A stretch of 64,000 nucleotides of DNA from an uncultured Erysipelotrichaceae bacterium (GCA_902783895.1 CACZST010000036.1:3278-67277); one strand, 5' to 3'. Counted from the stretch's first letter, positions 28,912-59,200 are shown. Translations and numbers: made by a program. Notes: generated from the letters alone by a model not told the origin.

Positions 28912-29745
28912 CTATTTTTTTTGATTATTCCCTATTTTTCGGTATTCTTCCTTTTCTAGTTCTTTAATAGATTTTTTAGGGGTTGGCAAGTCCTCTGGCA
29001 TAGTTCCACCTAATTCTTCTATAGCTTTTCTTACAGTCTTTCCAACTCTATAATGTGTATTTGTAGCGATTTGCTCATTTGGCTTTTTTTGCTTTTCAAG
29101 AAGTGCTTCTGTTTGTGTTATTCTAAATATATTTGCACCTAATTCAGCACTGCCCATATTATCTAAAATTTCTTCTCTATATCTTAAATTTTTTCTTTTA
29201 GCAATAGCATTTGCATCTTCACCACCATAAAGGCCTCTATAACCAGCATTAGTAAATCTATCAAAGTTTTTAACGCCTTTTTCCTTTGCAATTTTATATA
29301 AGATTTTATTACCATCTTTTGTTTGCTTTCTACGATACAATCTTTTTTCATCTTCTGTAAGTTTATTATACTCTTCTTCAGTTAACTCCATTTTTCTTGT
29401 TTGTATTGCAAAATACGTTTGTCCAAGTGCTACTGCTTTATATTTTGGATTTGCGTTTTGTACAATTAAGTAGCAAGCATATCGGCTTAATTTATAATCA
29501 ATAACTGCCTTTGTAGAAACTCCAGTTTTTACTATTTTGGTGTTTACACCAAAATTGGAATTAATGTTATTATTACTTTGAGAACAAGCAATTTGTGCTT
29601 TTTCAATAACAGCTGAAAAATATCTCCACTCTTTATAACTAAGTATTTGTTGTAATTCTCTTGCTTCCCAATATTCATTTCCGTGTTCATCAATATGTTT
29701 TATATCTTCAAAGTTTTTTTCTGTATATTCTTCTATATTACCCAT
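28912..29745 (-). CDS. dinD: DNA-damage-inducible protein D
   Basis: Collinear with remembered E. coli DinD: 'LSRYACYLIVQNANP', 'GQTYFAIQTRK', 'DEKRLYRR', 'GYRGLYGG', 'LGGTMPEDLPTPKKSIKELE'. Confidence 0.8.
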   Translation of the reverse strand: MGNIEEYTEKNFEDIKHIDEHGNEYWEARELQQILSYKEWRYFSAVIEKAQIACSQSNNNINSNFGVNTKIVKTGVSTKAVIDYKLSRYACYLIVQNANPKYKAVALGQTYFAIQTRKMELTEEEYNKLTEDEKRLYRRKQTKDGNKILYKIAKEKGVKNFDRFTNAGYRGLYGGEDANAIAKRKNLRYREEILDNMGSAELGANIFRITQTEALLEKQKKPNEQIATNTHYRVGKTVRKAIEELGGTMPEDLPTPKKSIKELEKEEYRKIGNNQKK

Positions 29746-30343: not shown

Positions 30344-31747
30344 TTATTTATTATTTTCTTCCCAGTATAATCGCATTTCTATAGGGGTCCAACCATTATT
30401 TTCCCATACTATTGAATTGTTATATATGTCCATCAAGTAGTTTAATATTTCTTGGGCATTTTTTTCTGTTACTTCTAATCCATAATATTGAAGCATTTCT
30501 AGTGATGCTCCTACAAATGAATTTCCTAGTCTATACATATCGGAAATTTTTTTTATAATAGTTTCAATAATATCTGATGGAATATTCTTTCCATTTAGGT
30601 ATTTTTTAAATTTGTTTTTTGATTCAGTTTCTTCATAGTAATCATAATTAGAGTACTTGAGCAATTTTTCTAGTTTAATTGGCTTCTTTTTTATGTTTTT
30701 TTGTCTTGATACAATATTATCTAATAATGATTCTAAATCATCATAGTTTAATAATTTGTGAATAAAATACATATTTTTGTCCGTATCAATTCTATCTATA
30801 TTATCTGCCCTTTCACAAAAGAATAATGTATTATCTTGAACATTAACTTTTTTATCTTTATTATAGTATAAACTATAATAATAATTTAAATCATTATCTG
30901 AAACTACACCATATAATTCGACCATCGACCTAACTAAATAATAAATTTTACTATTCTCATCTACTATTTTTTGAAATTTGTTTAATTCTATTTTTTTTAT
31001 GATATTGTAAACATCATCTGTCATTGATATATAGAATTTATTTCCTCTTCTGAACAAAAATACTACACCTATCATGTATAGAAAATGATACTCTTCAATA
31101 TTTATATTATTATCCTGAATAGTTCCTTTGTTTGATATTATTCTTTTTAATAAGTTAAACTCCTTATCTATAAGTCTGTCAATTAAATCTGTCAATTTAT
31201 CTTTATCAGTAAGTGCATTGTAAATAATTTTAACAAGTTCTTTTTTAGGTTTATTACTTAATTTATTGACAAGTAATAAATCGCCTATATATTTTAAGTC
31301 TCTAATAGTTAATGCTGTAAGAAGTTTTTTTAAATCTTTAATTATTGGCGTGTTAGCAGCGTTTTCTAAATTAAATTTTTCTTCTGGGCTCATAGTGCCT
31401 AACAGTTTAACTATTATTTCCTTTATTTCTGTGGGTATGTAATAAGAATAATGATTACCATTTTTATATATAAAAACAAATAATGATTCTATATCTTGTT
31501 CATACGCGGACATCCACGTTGAATTTTCGTTTTTAACTAACTTTTCAAAATATATTTTAGTAAATGGATCATCATTTGAGTATTCTAAACACGTTTCAAA
31601 AGTTTCTATAATATATTCTTTTAGTTCATATATATCATCAACACCAAAGTCTTGAATTTTTTCGTTAAGCAATTTTTTATCTAATTTTTTCAATGATGAT
31701 AGTAAGTCTAATTTGTCTTTTTTTATTAAATATTTTTTACAATTCAT
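30344..31747 (-). CDS. hypothetical protein (467 aa), helical, no catalytic motif seen
   Basis: ORF track. Starts 4 nt after the upstream small gene. Possible SAP/Rho_N-like helix-hairpin 'LTIRDLKYIGDLLLVNKLSNKPKKELVKIIYNAL'. Confidence 0.5.
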   Translation of the reverse strand: MNCKKYLIKKDKLDLLSSLKKLDKKLLNEKIQDFGVDDIYELKEYIIETFETCLEYSNDDPFTKIYFEKLVKNENSTWMSAYEQDIESLFVFIYKNGNHYSYYIPTEIKEIIVKLLGTMSPEEKFNLENAANTPIIKDLKKLLTALTIRDLKYIGDLLLVNKLSNKPKKELVKIIYNALTDKDKLTDLIDRLIDKEFNLLKRIISNKGTIQDNNINIEEYHFLYMIGVVFLFRRGNKFYISMTDDVYNIIKKIELNKFQKIVDENSKIYYLVRSMVELYGVVSDNDLNYYYSLYYNKDKKVNVQDNTLFFCERADNIDRIDTDKNMYFIHKLLNYDDLESLLDNIVSRQKNIKKKPIKLEKLLKYSNYDYYEETESKNKFKKYLNGKNIPSDIIETIIKKISDMYRLGNSFVGASLEMLQYYGLEVTEKNAQEILNYLMDIYNNSIVWENNGWTPIEMRLYWEENNK

Positions 31748-31751
31748 TGTT

Positions 31752-32012
31752 TTACTCCTCTTTCAAATATTTATCTATTAATTTTTCAGCGAGCTGTTCT
31801 CCTTCTTTTGTTATAGTAACAGATTTTCCTTTACTATGATATAAATATCTATCATCAGTCAATTTATTTATCACACTAAATGAATAACCTTTCCAGCATC
31901 TTTTAACATTTCCCTCCTCTATTTCACCATCATCATTAGCTACATATCCTTTTTCTTCCCACGATGTTAAATACATAAGTAATAATGTTAATTCCTCAAT
32001 GTTTTTGTTCAT
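31752..32012 (-). CDS. small DUF6429-like protein (86 aa)
   Basis: 'LLLMYLTSWEE...CWKGYSFSVINKL...SKGKSVTITKEGEQLAEKLIDKYL'. GGGAG 8 nt upstream of ATG 32012. Family name is from memory. Confidence 0.45.
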   Translation of the reverse strand: MNKNIEELTLLLMYLTSWEEKGYVANDDGEIEEGNVKRCWKGYSFSVINKLTDDRYLYHSKGKSVTITKEGEQLAEKLIDKYLKEE

Positions 32013-32177
32013 AAATAATACTCCCATATAAAATTTTGCAATATATAATTTTTAAATAATATATTGAATATAACATTATTATATCATGCATAAAGACGCT
32101 TAGTAAATTTATAGGTTTGTGAAATACTTATTTTTTAGTATATGTAGAATTTTTAAAAGAAAAATGCAATATTGATA

Positions 32178-33026
32178 CTAATCTTTATTATTAAACAATT
32201 CTTTAACAATTAAATCTTGTGAATGTAAATTATTATTTTTACCTAATAATAAATTTTCATAAAACCTAACTAAATAACTTCTATCTTCCTTTATATTTAA
32301 ATAATTATTAAAATAATTGCTTCTTACTAACGCATTTCTAAAATACACTGATTTATTTTTAAACAAATTATTTTCTACATTGTATCCTAAACTAATTAAA
32401 TATTTTTCTATAAATAATGCCATTGTTCGGGTATTACCTTCTCTAAATGGATGTACTTGCCATATACTAGATGAGAATTTAGTTATATTATTAATAACGT
32501 CAACTATATTCATTTCTTTATAGTTTTTTTCTTTTTCTAAAGATATATCATATTCCAAAGATTCAGTTAAAGTATTACAATCTCCGTATGCTACAGAATC
32601 ATTATTTAATATTTTTTCATGTTTTGAAAAATCTATTTTTCTAAATTCACCAGCAAATTCATAAACATCTTGAAATAAAAATTTATGAACATATTTTAAA
32701 TAATCAACTGATAATTCAAATTTATCTTCATCTAATAATTCAACTATTCTAGCAGATACAAAATCACATTCTAATTCATTATGATTTATTTCATTTTTGT
32801 TTTCTTTTTCAATATAGTATTCTCTTAATTCTTTTTCTACTTCTTCTATAGTCATCTCGCCAGTGACATTTTCTTCTAAAAGTTTTTCTAGATATTTAGA
32901 AGGTTTTAAATTATCTACTTCTTGAAGACCAATAGCCATATCCCACTGTAATTGTTTTACATAGTTACTAGATTTATATTCTTCATTATATTCATTTACA
33001 CTTGAATCAAATTCTTTTTCACTCAT
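32178..33026 (-). CDS. Fic/DOC-family protein with degenerate Fic motif and VbhA-like N-terminal region
   Basis: 'HPFREGNTRTMA' versus canonical HxFx(D/E)GNGRxxR (G to T, and the last R is lost). N-terminus 'MAIGLQEVDNLKPSKYL...GEMTIEEVEKEL' resembles a VbhA-type antitoxin helix. Confidence 0.7.
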   Translation of the reverse strand: MSEKEFDSSVNEYNEEYKSSNYVKQLQWDMAIGLQEVDNLKPSKYLEKLLEENVTGEMTIEEVEKELREYYIEKENKNEINHNELECDFVSARIVELLDEDKFELSVDYLKYVHKFLFQDVYEFAGEFRKIDFSKHEKILNNDSVAYGDCNTLTESLEYDISLEKEKNYKEMNIVDVINNITKFSSSIWQVHPFREGNTRTMALFIEKYLISLGYNVENNLFKNKSVYFRNALVRSNYFNNYLNIKEDRSYLVRFYENLLLGKNNNLHSQDLIVKELFNNKD

Positions 33027-33204
33027 AATTTAGACCTCCTAACTACTTATAAATATATCATATTTTTTACTATTCTCTTATTGTTTTCGGTTAATTTGTA
33101 TTTGAAATCTATTTTTAAGGCTATTCTTGCCACCAAAAAAAATTGTGCTTCTTATTTACTTAATTCAAATATAACTGTCTAAATACCCAATTAAATCTAA
33201 CAAT

Positions 33205-33239
33205 GGTAACTAAACCCACGACCTGCCGATTATGTGTAG
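33205..33239 (-). other. tRNA-like fragment (anticodon loop to T-arm of a CAU-anticodon tRNA), not a functional tRNA
   Basis: Minus strand ACACATAATCGGCAGGTCGTGGGTTtagtt resembles CTCATAACCG..GGTCGTAGGTTCGA of Firmicute tRNA-Met/Ile2. There is no D-arm, no closing T-stem and no acceptor stem. Confidence 0.3.
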
Positions 33240-33304
33240 TTTTATTATATATTAAATTATAAATTATAAAAAACTCTTTACACTAACAAGTGAATAGCTT
33301 GATA

Positions 33305-33610
33305 TCAGTCTACAAAATATGTATGTTTAACTTTCCATTTTTTAATGGCAATTACTACCCATAATATGTAAATTCCAAATGTTATAACACATAAAAGTAA
33401 CCATTTAATCCAATTTCCAAATAGTTGCATTGCAGTACCATCAAATCTTAATCTTTTTCCTTCTATCACTGTATGTTTAATCTCCCAGTTATACACCATA
33501 CAAATAGCCCATGGATAGCAAATACCAAAAGTACATATTGTAATTAATCCTCCTAGTAATTTCCATCCGATCAATTGTAGTAATCCTCCATCAAAATATG
33601 ATTTTTCCAT
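33305..33610 (-). CDS. small membrane protein, DUF898/YjgN-like
   Basis: Two or three TM helices. 'TFGICYPWAICMVYNW' and 'ITFGIYILW' recall the DUF898 'TLGIYxPWA' repeat. Confidence 0.4.
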   Translation of the reverse strand: MEKSYFDGGLLQLIGWKLLGGLITICTFGICYPWAICMVYNWEIKHTVIEGKRLRFDGTAMQLFGNWIKWLLLCVITFGIYILWVVIAIKKWKVKHTYFVD

Positions 33611-33783: not shown

Positions 33784-34812
33784 ATGTCTAACAGATGGAA
33801 AATTGTAGATGTTTCATATAAAATAATTGATAGAATGGAAAAGGATTTAGAAATTAATAGTGAGGCATATAAATTAATCGGATATCTTAATAAATTGGTT
33901 TCTAATGATTTAGATACTTATGGTGAATTTGGCAATTATTATGATATTTTTATAGAAGTGACAAAAAGATTATTTTATAGTGGTGAACTTATTAGGTCTT
34001 TTAGAATTCCTGATAATAAGTATTATAAAAGACAAATAGAAGTGTATAAAAATTTACCATTTACAAATCATCAAAATTGGAATAATTATTTACTTAAAAT
34101 ATTATCTTTAAGGGTGCCAAATGATGTTTATAAAAATTCATATAAAACATTTGAATATATAATTAAAAATTATAATTGCCATAATATTTGTTTGCAGTAT
34201 GAAGAGGTAAAAAATGTATTAGATTTTGCGGATAAAAATGAGGCTATTATACTTGCGAGCAAGGATGAATATTTTGAACTTGGAAAAGAAAAAGAATTAT
34301 ATAATAAAGCTAAAGATGGAAAATCTTTTAGTCAGTTAGATGAATTTAGAGAAATTAATAATTTAAACAGTAAGAGTGATGATGCAGTTAGGAAAGATTT
34401 TATATTTAAAAGAATTGGTAATATTGGTGAGATATGCACTTTTGATAAACTTAGTAAGTTAGATTTACCAATAATATTTGTCGCAAGAGATATTAAAAAC
34501 GGATTTGGATATGATATATATTTATCTGATGAAGAAGAAAAAGAAAATTTAATTGAAGTTAAATCTACAGTTAATCTTTCAAATAATAATTTTTTTAAAA
34601 TAAGTGAAAATGAATTAAATAAAGTAGAAGAAGCTTCAAAGAATGAATTTGCTAGATATATTATATGCAGAGTTAAGTTAAACAGTTTATTAGAACCTAA
34701 TTTCGAATTTTTGAGTAAAACATCTGAGGATACTTTTTCTAGTATTGATGGAAGTAATCATAAATATAAAGCAAAAATTTTAGAAAAAAGATTATTTAAG
34801 CAATTTAAATGA
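33784..34812 (+). CDS. DUF3883-like PD-(D/E)xK nuclease-fold protein, paralog A
   Basis: C-terminal block 'KRIGNIGEICTFDKL...GFGYDIYL...LIEVKST...FKISENEL...YIICRV' (GxxGE ... D ... ExK layout). N-terminal ~200 aa is unknown. Confidence 0.6.
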   Translation: MSNRWKIVDVSYKIIDRMEKDLEINSEAYKLIGYLNKLVSNDLDTYGEFGNYYDIFIEVTKRLFYSGELIRSFRIPDNKYYKRQIEVYKNLPFTNHQNWNNYLLKILSLRVPNDVYKNSYKTFEYIIKNYNCHNICLQYEEVKNVLDFADKNEAIILASKDEYFELGKEKELYNKAKDGKSFSQLDEFREINNLNSKSDDAVRKDFIFKRIGNIGEICTFDKLSKLDLPIIFVARDIKNGFGYDIYLSDEEEKENLIEVKSTVNLSNNNFFKISENELNKVEEASKNEFARYIICRVKLNSLLEPNFEFLSKTSEDTFSSIDGSNHKYKAKILEKRLFKQFK

Positions 34813-34852: not shown

Positions 34853-35854
34853 ATGACGGAAAATGAATTTATTGATAAAACATATAAACTTGCACATTAT
34901 ATAAAATGTAATGAAAAATCTACACGTTACATCGGAACAATCACAAAGGATGTAAGGAATTTCATTTTGGATAATCCAGATAATGATATAGTTATTAAAT
35001 TTGTTAAAGATACTGTTAATTATATTTTAGAATTGTTTAATAATGATATTTTTAATGACAATTTAAATAAATTTAATAATTTGTTTTATAGAAGGCAAAT
35101 TGAAATATGTAATTTCTTAAAGCTTCACATAAATAATGAATATGGTAATTGTGTTTGTTATTTAAAGAACTTGTTTAATATACCATGGGAATATAATGAT
35201 AATATATTTATTGAAACTTTATATATTTTAAATCATTATAGCTCTTATTTATCAAATAATTTAATTGAAAGAAATTTTCGAGATTTTATGAATAATAATA
35301 GGATAGTTAGTCCGTTTACTTTAGAAAATTATTATAAAGATTTAGATGAAGAAAAGAAATTTTATAACGATCCTCAAGAAAAAGAAATAATTGATTATGG
35401 TTATATAAATCATGTAATGGACTGTAATGCGGTCAAAATAAGATATATGAATAAAAGAATTGGTAATATCGGTGAATTCTATACATTAGATAGATTTAAA
35501 AAATTTGGCGAATGCATATTTGTTTCAAAAGATTTGAGCGAATTATTTGGATATGATATATACTTTTTAGATAAATATAATATTGAAAATTTACTTGAAG
35601 TTAAAACTACTACTAATAGTAATAATGGATTTTTTATAAGTGAAAATGAACTTTCTGTTGCTTTAGAAAGTAAAGTAAAAGGTGCTAAATATGTTTTATG
35701 TAGAGTTGTACTAGATAGTTTATTAAATCCGTCGTTTAGTTTTCTTAACTTAATCGATGAAGAAACTTTCTGTCAAATTGATAAGCCTGATGGAAAATTA
35801 TATAAGCGTGATTCAGATGAAGATGGTAAAATTTTATTTAAAAAATACCGTTAA
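34853..35854 (+). CDS. DUF3883-like PD-(D/E)xK nuclease-fold protein, paralog B
   Basis: 'KRIGNIGEFYTLDRF...LFGYDIYF...LLEVKTT...FFISENEL...YVLCRV', collinear with paralog A. Starts 40 nt after A. Confidence 0.6.
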   Translation: MTENEFIDKTYKLAHYIKCNEKSTRYIGTITKDVRNFILDNPDNDIVIKFVKDTVNYILELFNNDIFNDNLNKFNNLFYRRQIEICNFLKLHINNEYGNCVCYLKNLFNIPWEYNDNIFIETLYILNHYSSYLSNNLIERNFRDFMNNNRIVSPFTLENYYKDLDEEKKFYNDPQEKEIIDYGYINHVMDCNAVKIRYMNKRIGNIGEFYTLDRFKKFGECIFVSKDLSELFGYDIYFLDKYNIENLLEVKTTTNSNNGFFISENELSVALESKVKGAKYVLCRVVLDSLLNPSFSFLNLIDEETFCQIDKPDGKLYKRDSDEDGKILFKKYR

Positions 35855-35882: not shown

Positions 35883-36911
35883 TTAATTGTAATTATCAAT
35901 ATAATCATTTATTTGTTTTGTTAATATTTCATCTTCACTATCTTCTAAAACTTTCCAGTTACATATATCATTTTCAATAATTGGAACTAGTTCAATTCCC
36001 CCATTATTTATTATTTCAAAACATCCATGAGAAATGCCTAAGCATAAGTAGTAATTAAAGTTTTCTACTACCTCTAATAGGTTTTCGTTAGAATTTGCAA
36101 ACATTATTTTAAAGAAACGGTTATATTTATTATTTCTTATGGCAAGTATGCTTGCGCATATATGCTTACAATAAAATTCACATGGGCAGCTACAATATAC
36201 TTGAGTAAGTTTTTCTTCTTCATTATATTTAATTATTACAACGTATTTTTCTTCCCCTTCTACTATAGAAAAATATTTATCCTCTATTTTTTCTAAATAT
36301 TTTACTTTATTTTCAAGATAATAATTCTCCCCTCTTTCTAAAATTTTTGAAGAAAATAGTTTATCCAAATTCTCATTAAACAAATCAAAGGAGAATTCTT
36401 TTTTATATTCATATTTTTCTTTTGTTCCTGTTACTTCAGCAAGTAATTCATAAAGAAAATTTTCTAGTTTTTTAGGCAGATTTTGGAAAATAATTACAAA
36501 TAAATCAGATAAATAGGACTGTGACTTTGGCAGGTATTTATTAAAGTTTAAATTAACTTTTTCATTATTTTTAGTTTTAATATTAATATTTAATTTAACT
36601 AAATCTTTTTTATTTAGATTATCATTTTTTTCTTTTATAAAATAGCTAAAACAATAATTAGTTATATCATTAATTAGATTTTCATTTATATATTCATAGT
36701 TTATATATTTATCTATTTTATTTTCATCTATTATATTTAAATCAAACCAAGATAATTTATATGACTTAGCTTTTTTAATATAATTAATCGTTATATAAAA
36801 GTAAAATCCATCATAATCTAAAAGTGATAATTCTAGATATGTTTTATCTTTTTTGAAATACTTTTTTATTTTTTCTATTTTTTTAAGGTTTTTATTATAT
36901 TCTTCATTCAT
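35883..36911 (-). CDS. SWIM zinc-finger domain protein
   Basis: 'RGENYYLENKV...YVVIIKY...VYCSCPCEFYCKHICASILAI' fits the CxCxnCxH SWIM signature. GGAGG 8 nt upstream of ATG 36911. Confidence 0.65.
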   Translation of the reverse strand: MNEEYNKNLKKIEKIKKYFKKDKTYLELSLLDYDGFYFYITINYIKKAKSYKLSWFDLNIIDENKIDKYINYEYINENLINDITNYCFSYFIKEKNDNLNKKDLVKLNINIKTKNNEKVNLNFNKYLPKSQSYLSDLFVIIFQNLPKKLENFLYELLAEVTGTKEKYEYKKEFSFDLFNENLDKLFSSKILERGENYYLENKVKYLEKIEDKYFSIVEGEEKYVVIIKYNEEEKLTQVYCSCPCEFYCKHICASILAIRNNKYNRFFKIMFANSNENLLEVVENFNYYLCLGISHGCFEIINNGGIELVPIIENDICNWKVLEDSEDEILTKQINDYIDNYN

Positions 36912-36945
36912 AGTATTAACCTCCAAGCTAATTATATAAAAAAAT

Positions 36946-58284: not shown

Positions 58285-58479
58285 ATGGAAAAAGATTTAA
58301 CAAAATATAGAGGTAACGTTGATGATTTTGTTAGAAGAGTTCGTGATGCGATGAGACAAGAAGGATTAGAACCAACAGAGGAAACACTTAATGAAGCAAG
58401 GAAAATTGCGCTTGGTCAAGTAGACGCTAAAGATATTGTAGATGACATTGTTGAGTCAAGGGTTGCTAAGGGAAAATAA
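58285..58479 (+). CDS. VbhA-type antitoxin of a class I Fic module
   Basis: 64 aa with 'RDAMRQEGLEPTEETL', like the VbhA inhibitory helix (S/T)xxxE(G/N) but with Ala at the S/T position. GGAGG RBS. Confidence 0.65.
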   Translation: MEKDLTKYRGNVDDFVRRVRDAMRQEGLEPTEETLNEARKIALGQVDAKDIVDDIVESRVAKGK

Positions 58480-58480
58480 T

Positions 58481-59200
58481 ATGGAATATAGAGATAATTT
58501 TAGTTTTAATGATAGTATATACTGTTACCCAAATAGTGATGTTTTAAGAAATAAACTTGGCATCCATGATAAAGATGAACTTGAAAAAACAGAAGCAGCA
58601 ATAATTGGACCAAAAATTGCTCAATTATTCTTAAGTGGTACTACTATTTTAAAAGGGCCTAAGGGAAGATTTGATTTTAATCATTTAAAGGCAATTCATA
58701 GATATTTATTTGAAGATTTATATGACTTTGCGGGAGAAGTTCGAAAGGTCGATGTGGCTAAGGGTCATATTTTCTGTAATTATTTGAATATTGATTCTGA
58801 AGCTTTGAGAATATTTGATGAACTTAGATCAGAAAATTATTATTTAGCATATGATTTTGCTGAAACTATGGAAAAAATTGTTCACTTATTTATTGAAATT
58901 GATGCACTTCATCCTTTTAGAGAAGGAAACGGAAGAAGTCAAAGAGAATTTGCGGAAGAGCTTGCGAAAATAAACGGAATATGTTTAGATTTAACTAGAA
59001 TTTCAAAGGAAGAAATGGTTTATGCTTGTGGTTTGGCAGTTAATGGTGATTATTCTATGATTACTAATTTATTTTTTGATAATGCTGAAGAAAAGCCTGA
59101 AAAGCAGGATGAATATTTAGATAAATATATGGACCCTATTTTATGTGCGAAAGCCGTAGTTCAATGTGAAAAAGATAAAAGAAGAAAAAGAAAAAAGTAA
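58481..59200 (+). CDS. Fic-domain toxin (AMP-transferase type)
   Basis: Canonical 'HPFREGNGRSQREF'. The ATG starts 1 nt after the antitoxin stop. Confidence 0.8.
   Translation: MEYRDNFSFNDSIYCYPNSDVLRNKLGIHDKDELEKTEAAIIGPKIAQLFLSGTTILKGPKGRFDFNHLKAIHRYLFEDLYDFAGEVRKVDVAKGHIFCNYLNIDSEALRIFDELRSENYYLAYDFAETMEKIVHLFIEIDALHPFREGNGRSQREFAEELAKINGICLDLTRISKEEMVYACGLAVNGDYSMITNLFFDNAEEKPEKQDEYLDKYMDPILCAKAVVQCEKDKRRKRKK

Follow-up and report, generated by a model that had tools for sequence, protein, structure and literature searches.

We analysed a 64,000-nucleotide (nt) stretch of DNA from an uncultured Erysipelotrichaceae bacterium (GCA_902783895.1, CACZST010000036.1:3278-67277; hereafter the window, along whose whole length positions are counted). 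The locus discussed here, at 30344-33026, carries a gene for a Fic protein and, downstream of it, a pair of genes encoding a DUF6429 protein and a protein of 467 amino acids (aa), P467. Probably, two independent elements adjoin at this locus, an active Fic2-type toxin cassette and a separate DUF6429-P467 operon. The Fic protein is a further member of the already known GNTR, or Fic2-type, kind, and the DUF6429-P467 operon is a rare, uncharacterised family. Open reading frame (ORF) analysis of the window places all three genes on the minus strand, with the following features.

33026..32178, minus strand: Fic gene, 282 aa
32799..32969, minus strand: VbhA-like three-helix module of Fic, residues 20-76, carrying W..AIGLQxVD(G/N)LxPS..G
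32418..32453, minus strand: active-site loop of Fic, H192-P-F-R-E-G-N-T199-R-T-M-A203, translation HPFREGNTRTMA
32078..32107, minus strand: promoter-like site in the Fic/DUF6429 spacer (TTTACT, 18 nt, TG-TATAAT), from a consensus scan, 10/12 matches with an extended -10 TG; a consensus match only
31752..32012 (ORF to 32027), minus strand: DUF6429 gene, Pfam PF20008, E value 3.6e-19, 68.7 bits against a cut-off of 31.6
30344..31747, minus strand: P467, a 467-aa ORF translationally coupled to DUF6429 across 4 nt
31394..31747, minus strand: N-terminal module of P467, residues 1-118, separable and mobile
31208..31333, minus strand: Rho_N/SAP-like helix-extension-helix of P467, residues 139-180, translation LKKLLTALTIRDLKYIGDLLLVNKLSNKPKKELVKIIYNALT

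The active-site loop of Fic does not conform to the full canonical AMPylating motif HxFx(D/E)GNGRxxR; it departs from it at exactly the two positions named in a preliminary description of this DNA, with T199 in place of the second Gly and A203 in place of the last Arg. The protein matches Pfam Fic (PF02661, E 1.3e-11), and H192, F194, E196, G197 and N198 are all present. A homologue search with clustering at 90% returned at least 8000 candidate clusters, the 120 best of which are 86-99% identical to window Fic, and an exhaustive search of 50%-identity representatives gave 300 proteins with E <1e-30. Loop residues were counted in the best 150 of these 300 representatives, and a loop could be recognised in 139 of them. 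All 139 have His, Phe, Gly and Asn; Glu is present in 133/139 and the first Arg in 136/139, while the second-Gly position is Thr in 137/139 and the last-Arg position is Ala in 122/139. Because both substitutions recur at these frequencies across diverse representatives, GNTR is a deep subfamily signature and not the strain-specific mutation for which the preliminary description had allowed. The sequence P0242, which reads GNGRSTR after residue 207, was rejected as a sign of motif variability: its similarity to the query ends at 207, and it looks chimeric. Additionally, the ratio of nonsynonymous to synonymous substitution rates (dN/dS) of Fic against 14 homologues is 0.09-0.29. With both changes fixed, the catalytic residues invariant or nearly so and dN/dS in this range, altered chemistry, one of the two possibilities raised in the preliminary description, is the best reading.

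An AlphaFold2 model of Fic (predicted local distance difference test, pLDDT, 94.2; predicted template modelling score, pTM, 0.89) has its best Foldseek matches among class I Fic proteins, namely the Bartonella Beps, VbhT, Fic-1/AntF and EcFicT, with probability 1.0 to VbhT, Beps and EcFicT. The model thus predicts a class-I-like fold for the Fic core. The class I proteins that it matches best are toxins under the control of separate antitoxins.

The GNTR subfamily, which the preliminary description had considered might prove to be a well-characterised class, has only one partly characterised member, Fic2 of Campylobacter fetus subsp. venerealis. Fic2 carries the motif HPFREGNTRTIA, with the deviations G191T and R195A (Sprenger et al. 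2017, PMC5651007). Its expression causes growth arrest and filamentation of E. coli, and its H184A mutant is harmless; free ribosomal subunits increase, 70S ribosomes decrease and subunit joining is disturbed; and an upstream, overlapping class II protein, Fic1, neutralises it (PMC5651007). A tblastn search of plasmids traced the Fic2 orthologue to C. fetus plasmid NZ_CP059433, which carries two tandem Fic genes with a 1-bp overlap, the first of which carries S31xxxE35G. The second is identified as Fic2 because it has His184, the HPFREGNTRTIA motif, the 1-bp overlap and a C-terminal KEKE tail. Window Fic is 43% identical to this orthologue over 256 aa (E 7e-61), N-terminal module included, and bears the Fic2-type signature HxFxEGNTRTxA. 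Specifically, the two proteins share both deviations, the His-Thr-Ala spacing and full-length homology that extends through the N-terminal GL..VD.LKPS module. They differ in that Fic2 has 306 aa and a KEKE tail whereas window Fic has 282 aa, and in that Fic2 overlaps its neutralising class II Fic1 by 1 bp whereas the window gene is solitary. Moreover, Fic2 resides on a pathogenicity island or on conjugative plasmids, and the window gene in a defence-type island of a metagenome-assembled genome of small-genome gut Bacilli. No Fic gene flanks window Fic and the genome's other Fic-fold genes lie elsewhere, so the locus does not form a Fic1-Fic2 module. Relatives of the GNTR type are also found on Campylobacter, Bacteroides, Treponema and Paraclostridium plasmids.

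In the preliminary description, the N-terminus of Fic was taken for a fused VbhA-type antitoxin helix that lacks both the S/T and the G/N of the inhibitory (S/T)xxxE(G/N) motif. The AlphaFold2 model places helices 20-38, 44-54 and 60-76 ahead of the Fic core with pLDDT 95-98, and the W..AIGLQxVD(G/N)LxPS..G motif is kept across the GNTR subfamily. Read in the register of the inhibitory motif, the segment is L34-x-x-x-D38-N39. The S/T position is indeed Leu (L34), but the cap residue is present as N39 (G in most relatives); the position of the inhibitory Glu is occupied by D38, and wherever the motif was found in the subfamily this position is Asp, never Glu. The window itself holds a canonical antitoxin-Fic pair, which served as an internal control for this register.

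58285-58479 and 58442-59200 (overlapping), plus strand: canonical class I pair, a 64-aa VbhA-like protein and a Fic protein with HPFREGNGRSQR

The 64-aa antitoxin reads A22xxxE26G27-LEPT (Pfam VbhA E 6e-4). D38 of window Fic and E26 of this stand-alone antitoxin share one column of the Pfam VbhA model, and hhalign sets DNLKPS of Fic directly on EGLEPT of the antitoxin (E 0.011). The Pfam VbhA model (PF18495) matches window Fic at E 0.036-0.038, under its 25.9-bit cut-off, and four of the six relatives scanned match at E 9e-4 to 0.084, all likewise under the cut-off. The idea of a fused antitoxin, therefore, is supported in register, but not in statistics. The N-terminal helix carries L34xxxD38N39 in cis and not the (S/T)xxxE(G/N) of class II proteins, and no conserved flanking ORF supplies the separate small (S/T)xxxE(G/N) antitoxin of class I. 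A PF18495 search of 150 class-level genomes for stand-alone VbhA genes gave one weak match.

The Fic gene travels by itself, as a single-gene cassette, and serves in this family as the conserved anchor of a hot spot for defence islands. DNA identity between Fic contexts (86-92%) covers the coding sequence and extends beyond it by only about 43 nt on the upstream side and about 25 nt on the downstream side, and because conservation ends so close to the gene, no small flanking ORF or antitoxin is conserved with it. Fic is present in 109 of 401 family genomes (27%) and is 88-93% identical across different genera. In contigs with 86-91%-identical Fic (L052-L072, L093-L103), the hot spot is laid out as an Amidase_3 gene fragment, slot 1, Fic and slot 2. 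Slot 1 holds Hachiman-like (HamA and helicase) or Gabija-like (AAA_15/TOPRIM and UvrD) genes, AbiEi/AbiEii with a DUF6429 operon, or AAA ATPase genes; in slot 2 are type I restriction-modification, a pair of Dcm genes with McrBC, Mrr with MazG and an SLFN helicase, or a HipA-like kinase with PIN and restriction-modification genes. A large serine recombinase lies beyond the Amidase_3 fragment in some contigs. Near the Fic gene of the window there is neither a recombinase nor an Amidase_3 fragment. The following stretch upstream of it is found elsewhere at the left edge of the islands.

33051..33241, minus strand: non-coding stretch upstream of Fic, elsewhere 3' of the Amidase_3 fragment at the islands' left edge; blastn, 73-80% identity

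Its blastn matches are L052:1603-1781, L058:1700-1773 and L019:6619-6694; the window keeps 75-190 nt of the sequence found elsewhere behind the fragment. On two plasmids, of C. jejuni (L080) and C. corcagiensis (L081), a GNTR-type Fic gene is the middle one of a tight three-gene string, flanked by another partner set, unknown proteins of ~261-265 aa and 579-645 aa.

The spacing of the pair downstream of Fic is as the preliminary description gave it, with one correction, that the strand is the minus one for each of the three genes. A gap of 150 nt separates the Fic stop from an ATG at 32027, from which, as the first ATG, the DUF6429 ORF 32027..31752 counts 91 aa. The ATG at 32012, which is preceded by a GGGAG ribosome-binding site and gives an 86-aa product, is likely the start of the gene. 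The DUF6429 stop TAA is followed by AACA (4 nt) and then by the P467 ATG; ORF coordinates and the Pfam match thus bear out an 86-aa DUF6429-like protein and a 467-aa protein across a 4-nt gap. DUF6429, which leads the operon, has weak matches of the winged helix-turn-helix type (MntR, PADLOC WH_III-A) and looks like a protein of that fold. Among 201 genomes of the order, only 9 carry it; in other loci it neighbours P467, an integrase-SAM-like protein, PRiA4 and an unknown protein of 399 aa. Because DUF6429 is this rare and its neighbours are this set of modules, the DUF6429-P467 pairing is not due to chance, and the pair is, to judge from its layout, a genuine operon of two coupled genes that has its own promoter-like site.

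P467 belongs to no family in Pfam, NCBIfam, PADLOC or PHROG. It is rare, with 124-140 clusters among 5.8 billion proteins, none of them with a Pfam domain, and it is found in 16 of 401 family genomes (4%), several copies being decayed. The AlphaFold2 model of P467 (pLDDT 87.5) gave no match in a Foldseek search against PDB and BFVD (best E 0.095), and the only matches to PDB sequences, designed repeat proteins, were judged spurious. P467 has winged-helix-like units and dN/dS of 0.11-0.26. It has no catalytic-looking invariant residues, as the preliminary description had it; the SAP/Rho_N-like hairpin noted there is only weakly supported, Pfam Rho_N giving sub-threshold matches to 3 of 23 P467 members (best E 1.5e-4) and to L034, a distant relative (E 0.0058). 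The N-terminal module is missing from 346-aa forms, lies at the C-terminus in the permuted P0216 and L026-28, is a gene of its own in L029, and stands alone in L030, L090 and L091, beside PRiA4 or HipA-like genes.

We recovered 34 species-level P467 loci; the partners of P467 in them invariably share its strand and lie close to it. A HipA-like kinase lies upstream of P467 in 10 of the 34 and DUF6429 in 6, with DUF6429 nearby in 4 more; a gene for a small integrase-SAM-like protein is a partner in 6 loci, UPF0158 follows downstream in 5, and PRiA4_ORF3 is a partner in 5. DUF6429-P467 is part of a rare, lineage-restricted network of shuffling modules that comprises the HipA-like kinase, UPF0158, PRiA4_ORF3, SWIM and integrase-SAM-like proteins. 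One operon, HipA-like kinase, P467 and UPF0158 in that order, recurs in L001, L009, L013, L017 and L029; a kinase 83% identical to that of this operon adjoins Fic alone, without P467, in L093. In L092/L099 (3128-4687), an orphan of 519 aa stands at P467's place, between an integrase-SAM remnant, itself preceded by DUF6429, and Fic. This protein was rejected as a relative of P467, as hhalign of the P467 profile gave E 0.11 and no similarity. P467 was not found in plasmid and phage collections, and DUF6429 had a single match there, a 2.1-Mb, chromosome-sized record of Fusobacterium vincentii. A literature search on DUF6429 and on the UPF0158/PRiA4/SWIM/SEC-C combination found nothing useful.

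That Fic works with the two proteins encoded downstream, as the preliminary description proposed, does not fit the way in which the genes are distributed. A Fic gene lies within 6 kb in 2 of the 34 P467 loci, both times downstream and in different arrangements, at 2.5 kb in L012 and at 0.6 kb in L019, where it is 46% identical to window Fic. Conversely, 14 of 61 relatives carry Fic, and none of the 15 other Fic loci of these relatives has DUF6429 or P467 within 1.5 kb. Among the 401 family genomes, Fic and P467 are adjacent only in the window's own genome (G000) and in G222, of the same genus, that is in 2 of 109 Fic-bearing genomes; about 100 of the 109 are without P467. Synteny of the trio is not conserved beyond this species. 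The trio is kept in 24 contigs with 96%-identical P467, which represent one species and one locus and are not independent. Furthermore, the synonymous divergence (dS) between the window and L012 is 0.38 for Fic, 0.87 for P467 and 1.09 for DUF6429, a more than 2-fold difference between Fic and the pair, and the promoter-like site lies between them; the scan that gave this site found no terminator-like site. Taken together, these comparisons indicate that DUF6429-P467 is a separate operon and not a set of partners of Fic.

From the resemblances described above, a mechanism may be outlined. Fic would be an active GNTR (Fic2-type) enzyme in which an N-terminally fused VbhA-like antitoxin module precedes a class-I-like core, and is most likely, by analogy with Fic2, a growth-arresting toxin dependent on His192. 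Its target is probably the translation apparatus, again by analogy with C. fetus Fic2, and its chemistry is probably unlike canonical AMPylation, the second Gly of the phosphate loop being Thr. Normally the gamma-phosphate is held by the last Arg of the motif, which also forms a pair with the inhibitory Glu. In this subfamily the last Arg is Ala and the inhibitory Glu is, correspondingly, an invariant Asp; a different pose of the nucleotide and a modified latch would go with these changes. Control is probably exerted in cis by the fused module. Given its place as the constant anchor of a hot spot for defence islands, Fic probably serves, we propose, in abortive-infection defence or in stabilisation of the island. 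P467 would be a multi-domain protein, probably nucleic-acid binding through its winged-helix-like units and Rho_N/SAP-like hairpin. The DUF6429-P467 unit might most readily act as a regulator or sensor of a conflict system; modules of its network are found in the island slots that also house known defence systems.

The known systems closest to window Fic compare with it as follows. VbhT-VbhA and FicT-FicA are the closest solved folds and have the three-helix VbhA-like element in common with it; window Fic, unlike these pairs, carries the antitoxin-like element in cis, as a fusion, with Asp in place of Glu, Leu in place of S/T and Ala in place of the Glu-pairing Arg, and there is no separate antitoxin. 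Doc, which targets translation, likewise has a residue other than Gly at the second loop glycine (GNKR in Doc, GNTR in window Fic), and the change at this position in Doc alters its chemistry rather than abolishing activity. Window Fic differs from Doc in having Thr and not Lys, in its larger size and in its VbhA-like module, and by sequence it falls outside the Doc family, its PHROG Doc-like match having an E value of only 0.0023. The motif of SoFic, to which window Fic has a weak match (E 3.6e-4) with a hidden Markov model (HMM) and from which it differs in architecture, is understood as canonical. SoFic is a Fic toxin of defence islands that acts in abortive infection by AMPylation and has a small adjoining antitoxin (PMC12249575). 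A strong HMM match is to the PADLOC family PDC-S72 (E 1.7e-78), with residues 10-280 aligned to profile positions 6-275 of 377; but window Fic lacks the C-terminal winged helix-turn-helix (Fic-like_C or HTH_24) that many longer relatives bear. A literature search on the name PDC-S72 returned nothing useful, and the family is a candidate without published validation.

Several observations weigh against an autonomous, cis-controlled Fic toxin beside an unrelated operon. Fic2 needs the adjoining class II antitoxin Fic1, which is absent here, so that control in cis by the fused module is assumed; Fic2 bears the same N-terminal module and is yet toxic on over-expression. The similarity of the module to VbhA stays below the Pfam threshold, and a search of PDB sequences with a profile of 35 N-terminal sequences and with the N-terminal fragment returned no VbhA chain, chance matches only. 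The defence role is guilt by association, PDC-S72 being only a candidate family. Additionally, the antitoxin that neutralises SoFic, AS1, is encoded by a small gene just downstream, an arrangement like that in the window (PMC12249575). Genome co-occurrence of Fic and P467 is enriched (11/16 against 98/385, odds ratio 6.4, Fisher p 5e-4, uncorrected for phylogeny), and Fic is co-located with the DUF6429/P467/HipA network in five separate instances, namely the window, L012, L019, L091 (P467 N-module, HipA-like kinase, Fic) and L092/L099 (DUF6429, then the 519-aa protein, then Fic). The SoFic precedent, the enrichment, the co-locations and the adjacency of the trio on one strand all speak for a three-gene system, in which Fic would be the effector and DUF6429 and/or P467 an antitoxin, regulator or trigger sensor. 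We nevertheless consider such a system quite improbable. Order, spacing and composition vary in each co-location, the partner is missing from 32/34 P467 loci and from 15/15 other Fic loci of relatives, and conservation of the Fic DNA stops <45 nt from the gene; these points add to the divergent dS, to the promoter-like site and to the single origin of the 24 contigs. The enriched co-occurrence and the co-locations are attributed instead to shared residence in one hot spot, though Fic and the network may yet be loosely linked in function. The preferred reading, an active enzyme, also has to be set against a dead pseudo-enzyme, a scaffold or an antitoxin-like Fic, an alternative left standing in the preliminary description and in keeping with the loss of two canonical ATP-binding residues (Gly to T199, Arg to A203). 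This we regard as very improbable. Across the subfamily the catalytic His, the Mg-binding Glu, the Gly-Asn and the first Arg show little or no variation, purifying selection acts on the gene, and the Doc example argues that a change at the glycine position does not kill the enzyme. Because the toxicity of the 43%-identical homologue Fic2 needs the catalytic His, being lost in H184A (PMC5651007), a pseudo-enzyme is unlikely and the toxin reading is supported by analogy.

Two further alternatives concern what the elements do rather than whether they belong together. Fic might be an addiction or backbone gene of a mobile island in which the defence systems are mere co-travelling cargo; this is possible, though we lean against it. 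It would account for Fic as the sole constant between variable slots, for the serine recombinase and Amidase_3 fragment at one edge in several contexts, for the high identity across genera, and for the occurrence of relatives on Campylobacter conjugative plasmids and beside replication genes on a Paraclostridium plasmid. On the other hand, no cognate antitoxin gene travels along, and the window copy has no recombinase or amidase fragment nearby; defence and maintenance roles are, moreover, not mutually exclusive. For DUF6429-P467, the main rival holds that the pair was left behind by a HipA-like kinase toxin-antitoxin operon, as an orphaned antitoxin or regulator, and is functionless here. The kinase is directly upstream of P467 in the 10 loci mentioned, where known families place a DNA-binding antitoxin, and there are HipA families in which a putative DNA-binding antitoxin is encoded downstream (Gerdes et al. 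2021, PMC8262856); the window's genome has no HipA-like gene, and several P467 copies elsewhere are decayed. P467 is unrelated to HipB, HipS, HipN and HipR. Against a functionless remnant, which we consider unlikely, the DUF6429-P467 form recurs intact in 6 species with dN/dS 0.11-0.43, and the same HipA-like kinase is also found without P467. A bolder version of the preferred reading is put forward tentatively, as less likely than not: the GNTR Fic would be a cis-controlled one-gene abortive-infection toxin that uses non-AMPylation chemistry (Doc-like phosphoryl transfer or another donor) and anchors a mobile defence hot spot in small-genome gut Bacilli, and the DUF6429/P467/HipA-like/UPF0158 modules in its slots would make up a new family of defence or conflict systems.

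The GNTR subfamily is very common, as the cluster count and its presence in 27% of the family genomes attest, and the fixed signature, together with the change of Glu to Asp that accompanies the loss of Arg, makes a clean case for new Fic chemistry or regulation. The autonomy of Fic removes the need for experiments on a non-existent three-gene system, and the Fic-anchored hot spot offers a handle for finding new defence cargo, including the DUF6429/P467 network, in poorly studied gut Bacilli.

The locus lies in 8.4 kb of AT-rich accessory DNA bounded by a two-component system and obg, in which nearly every other gene matches a PADLOC candidate family. A repeat scan of the island found no bounding repeats, only AT-rich chance matches, and an Rfam scan of the window matched no family. 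The remaining features of the island are as follows.

28912..29745, minus strand: DinD (DNA-damage-inducible protein D, Bro-N), which comes next among the island's cargo genes; NCBIfam PRK11525 E 3.7e-96, PADLOC PDC-S13 E 4e-94
33305-33610, minus strand: 101-aa ORF that covers only the first ~48 of 336 DUF898 model positions
33784-34812 and 34853-35854, plus strand: two tandem paralogues with C-terminal NOV_C nuclease-like domains; PADLOC PDC-S36 E ~2e-8
35883-36926, minus strand: SWIM protein, 347 aa; weak PADLOC PDC-S62 match

The 101-aa ORF probably represents what is left of a gene at the edge of the island, and the NOV_C paralogues and the SWIM protein are further candidate defence cargo. 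Outside the window, contig C34 of the genome carries two more Fic-fold genes, at ~60.8-61.1 kb and 47.1-47.7 kb, one with a Doc-like loop (HPFEDGNKRSAK) and the other of class II type (TIEGEN and HPYFDVNGRTSR), which brings the total to four Fic-fold genes in a ~1-Mb genome.

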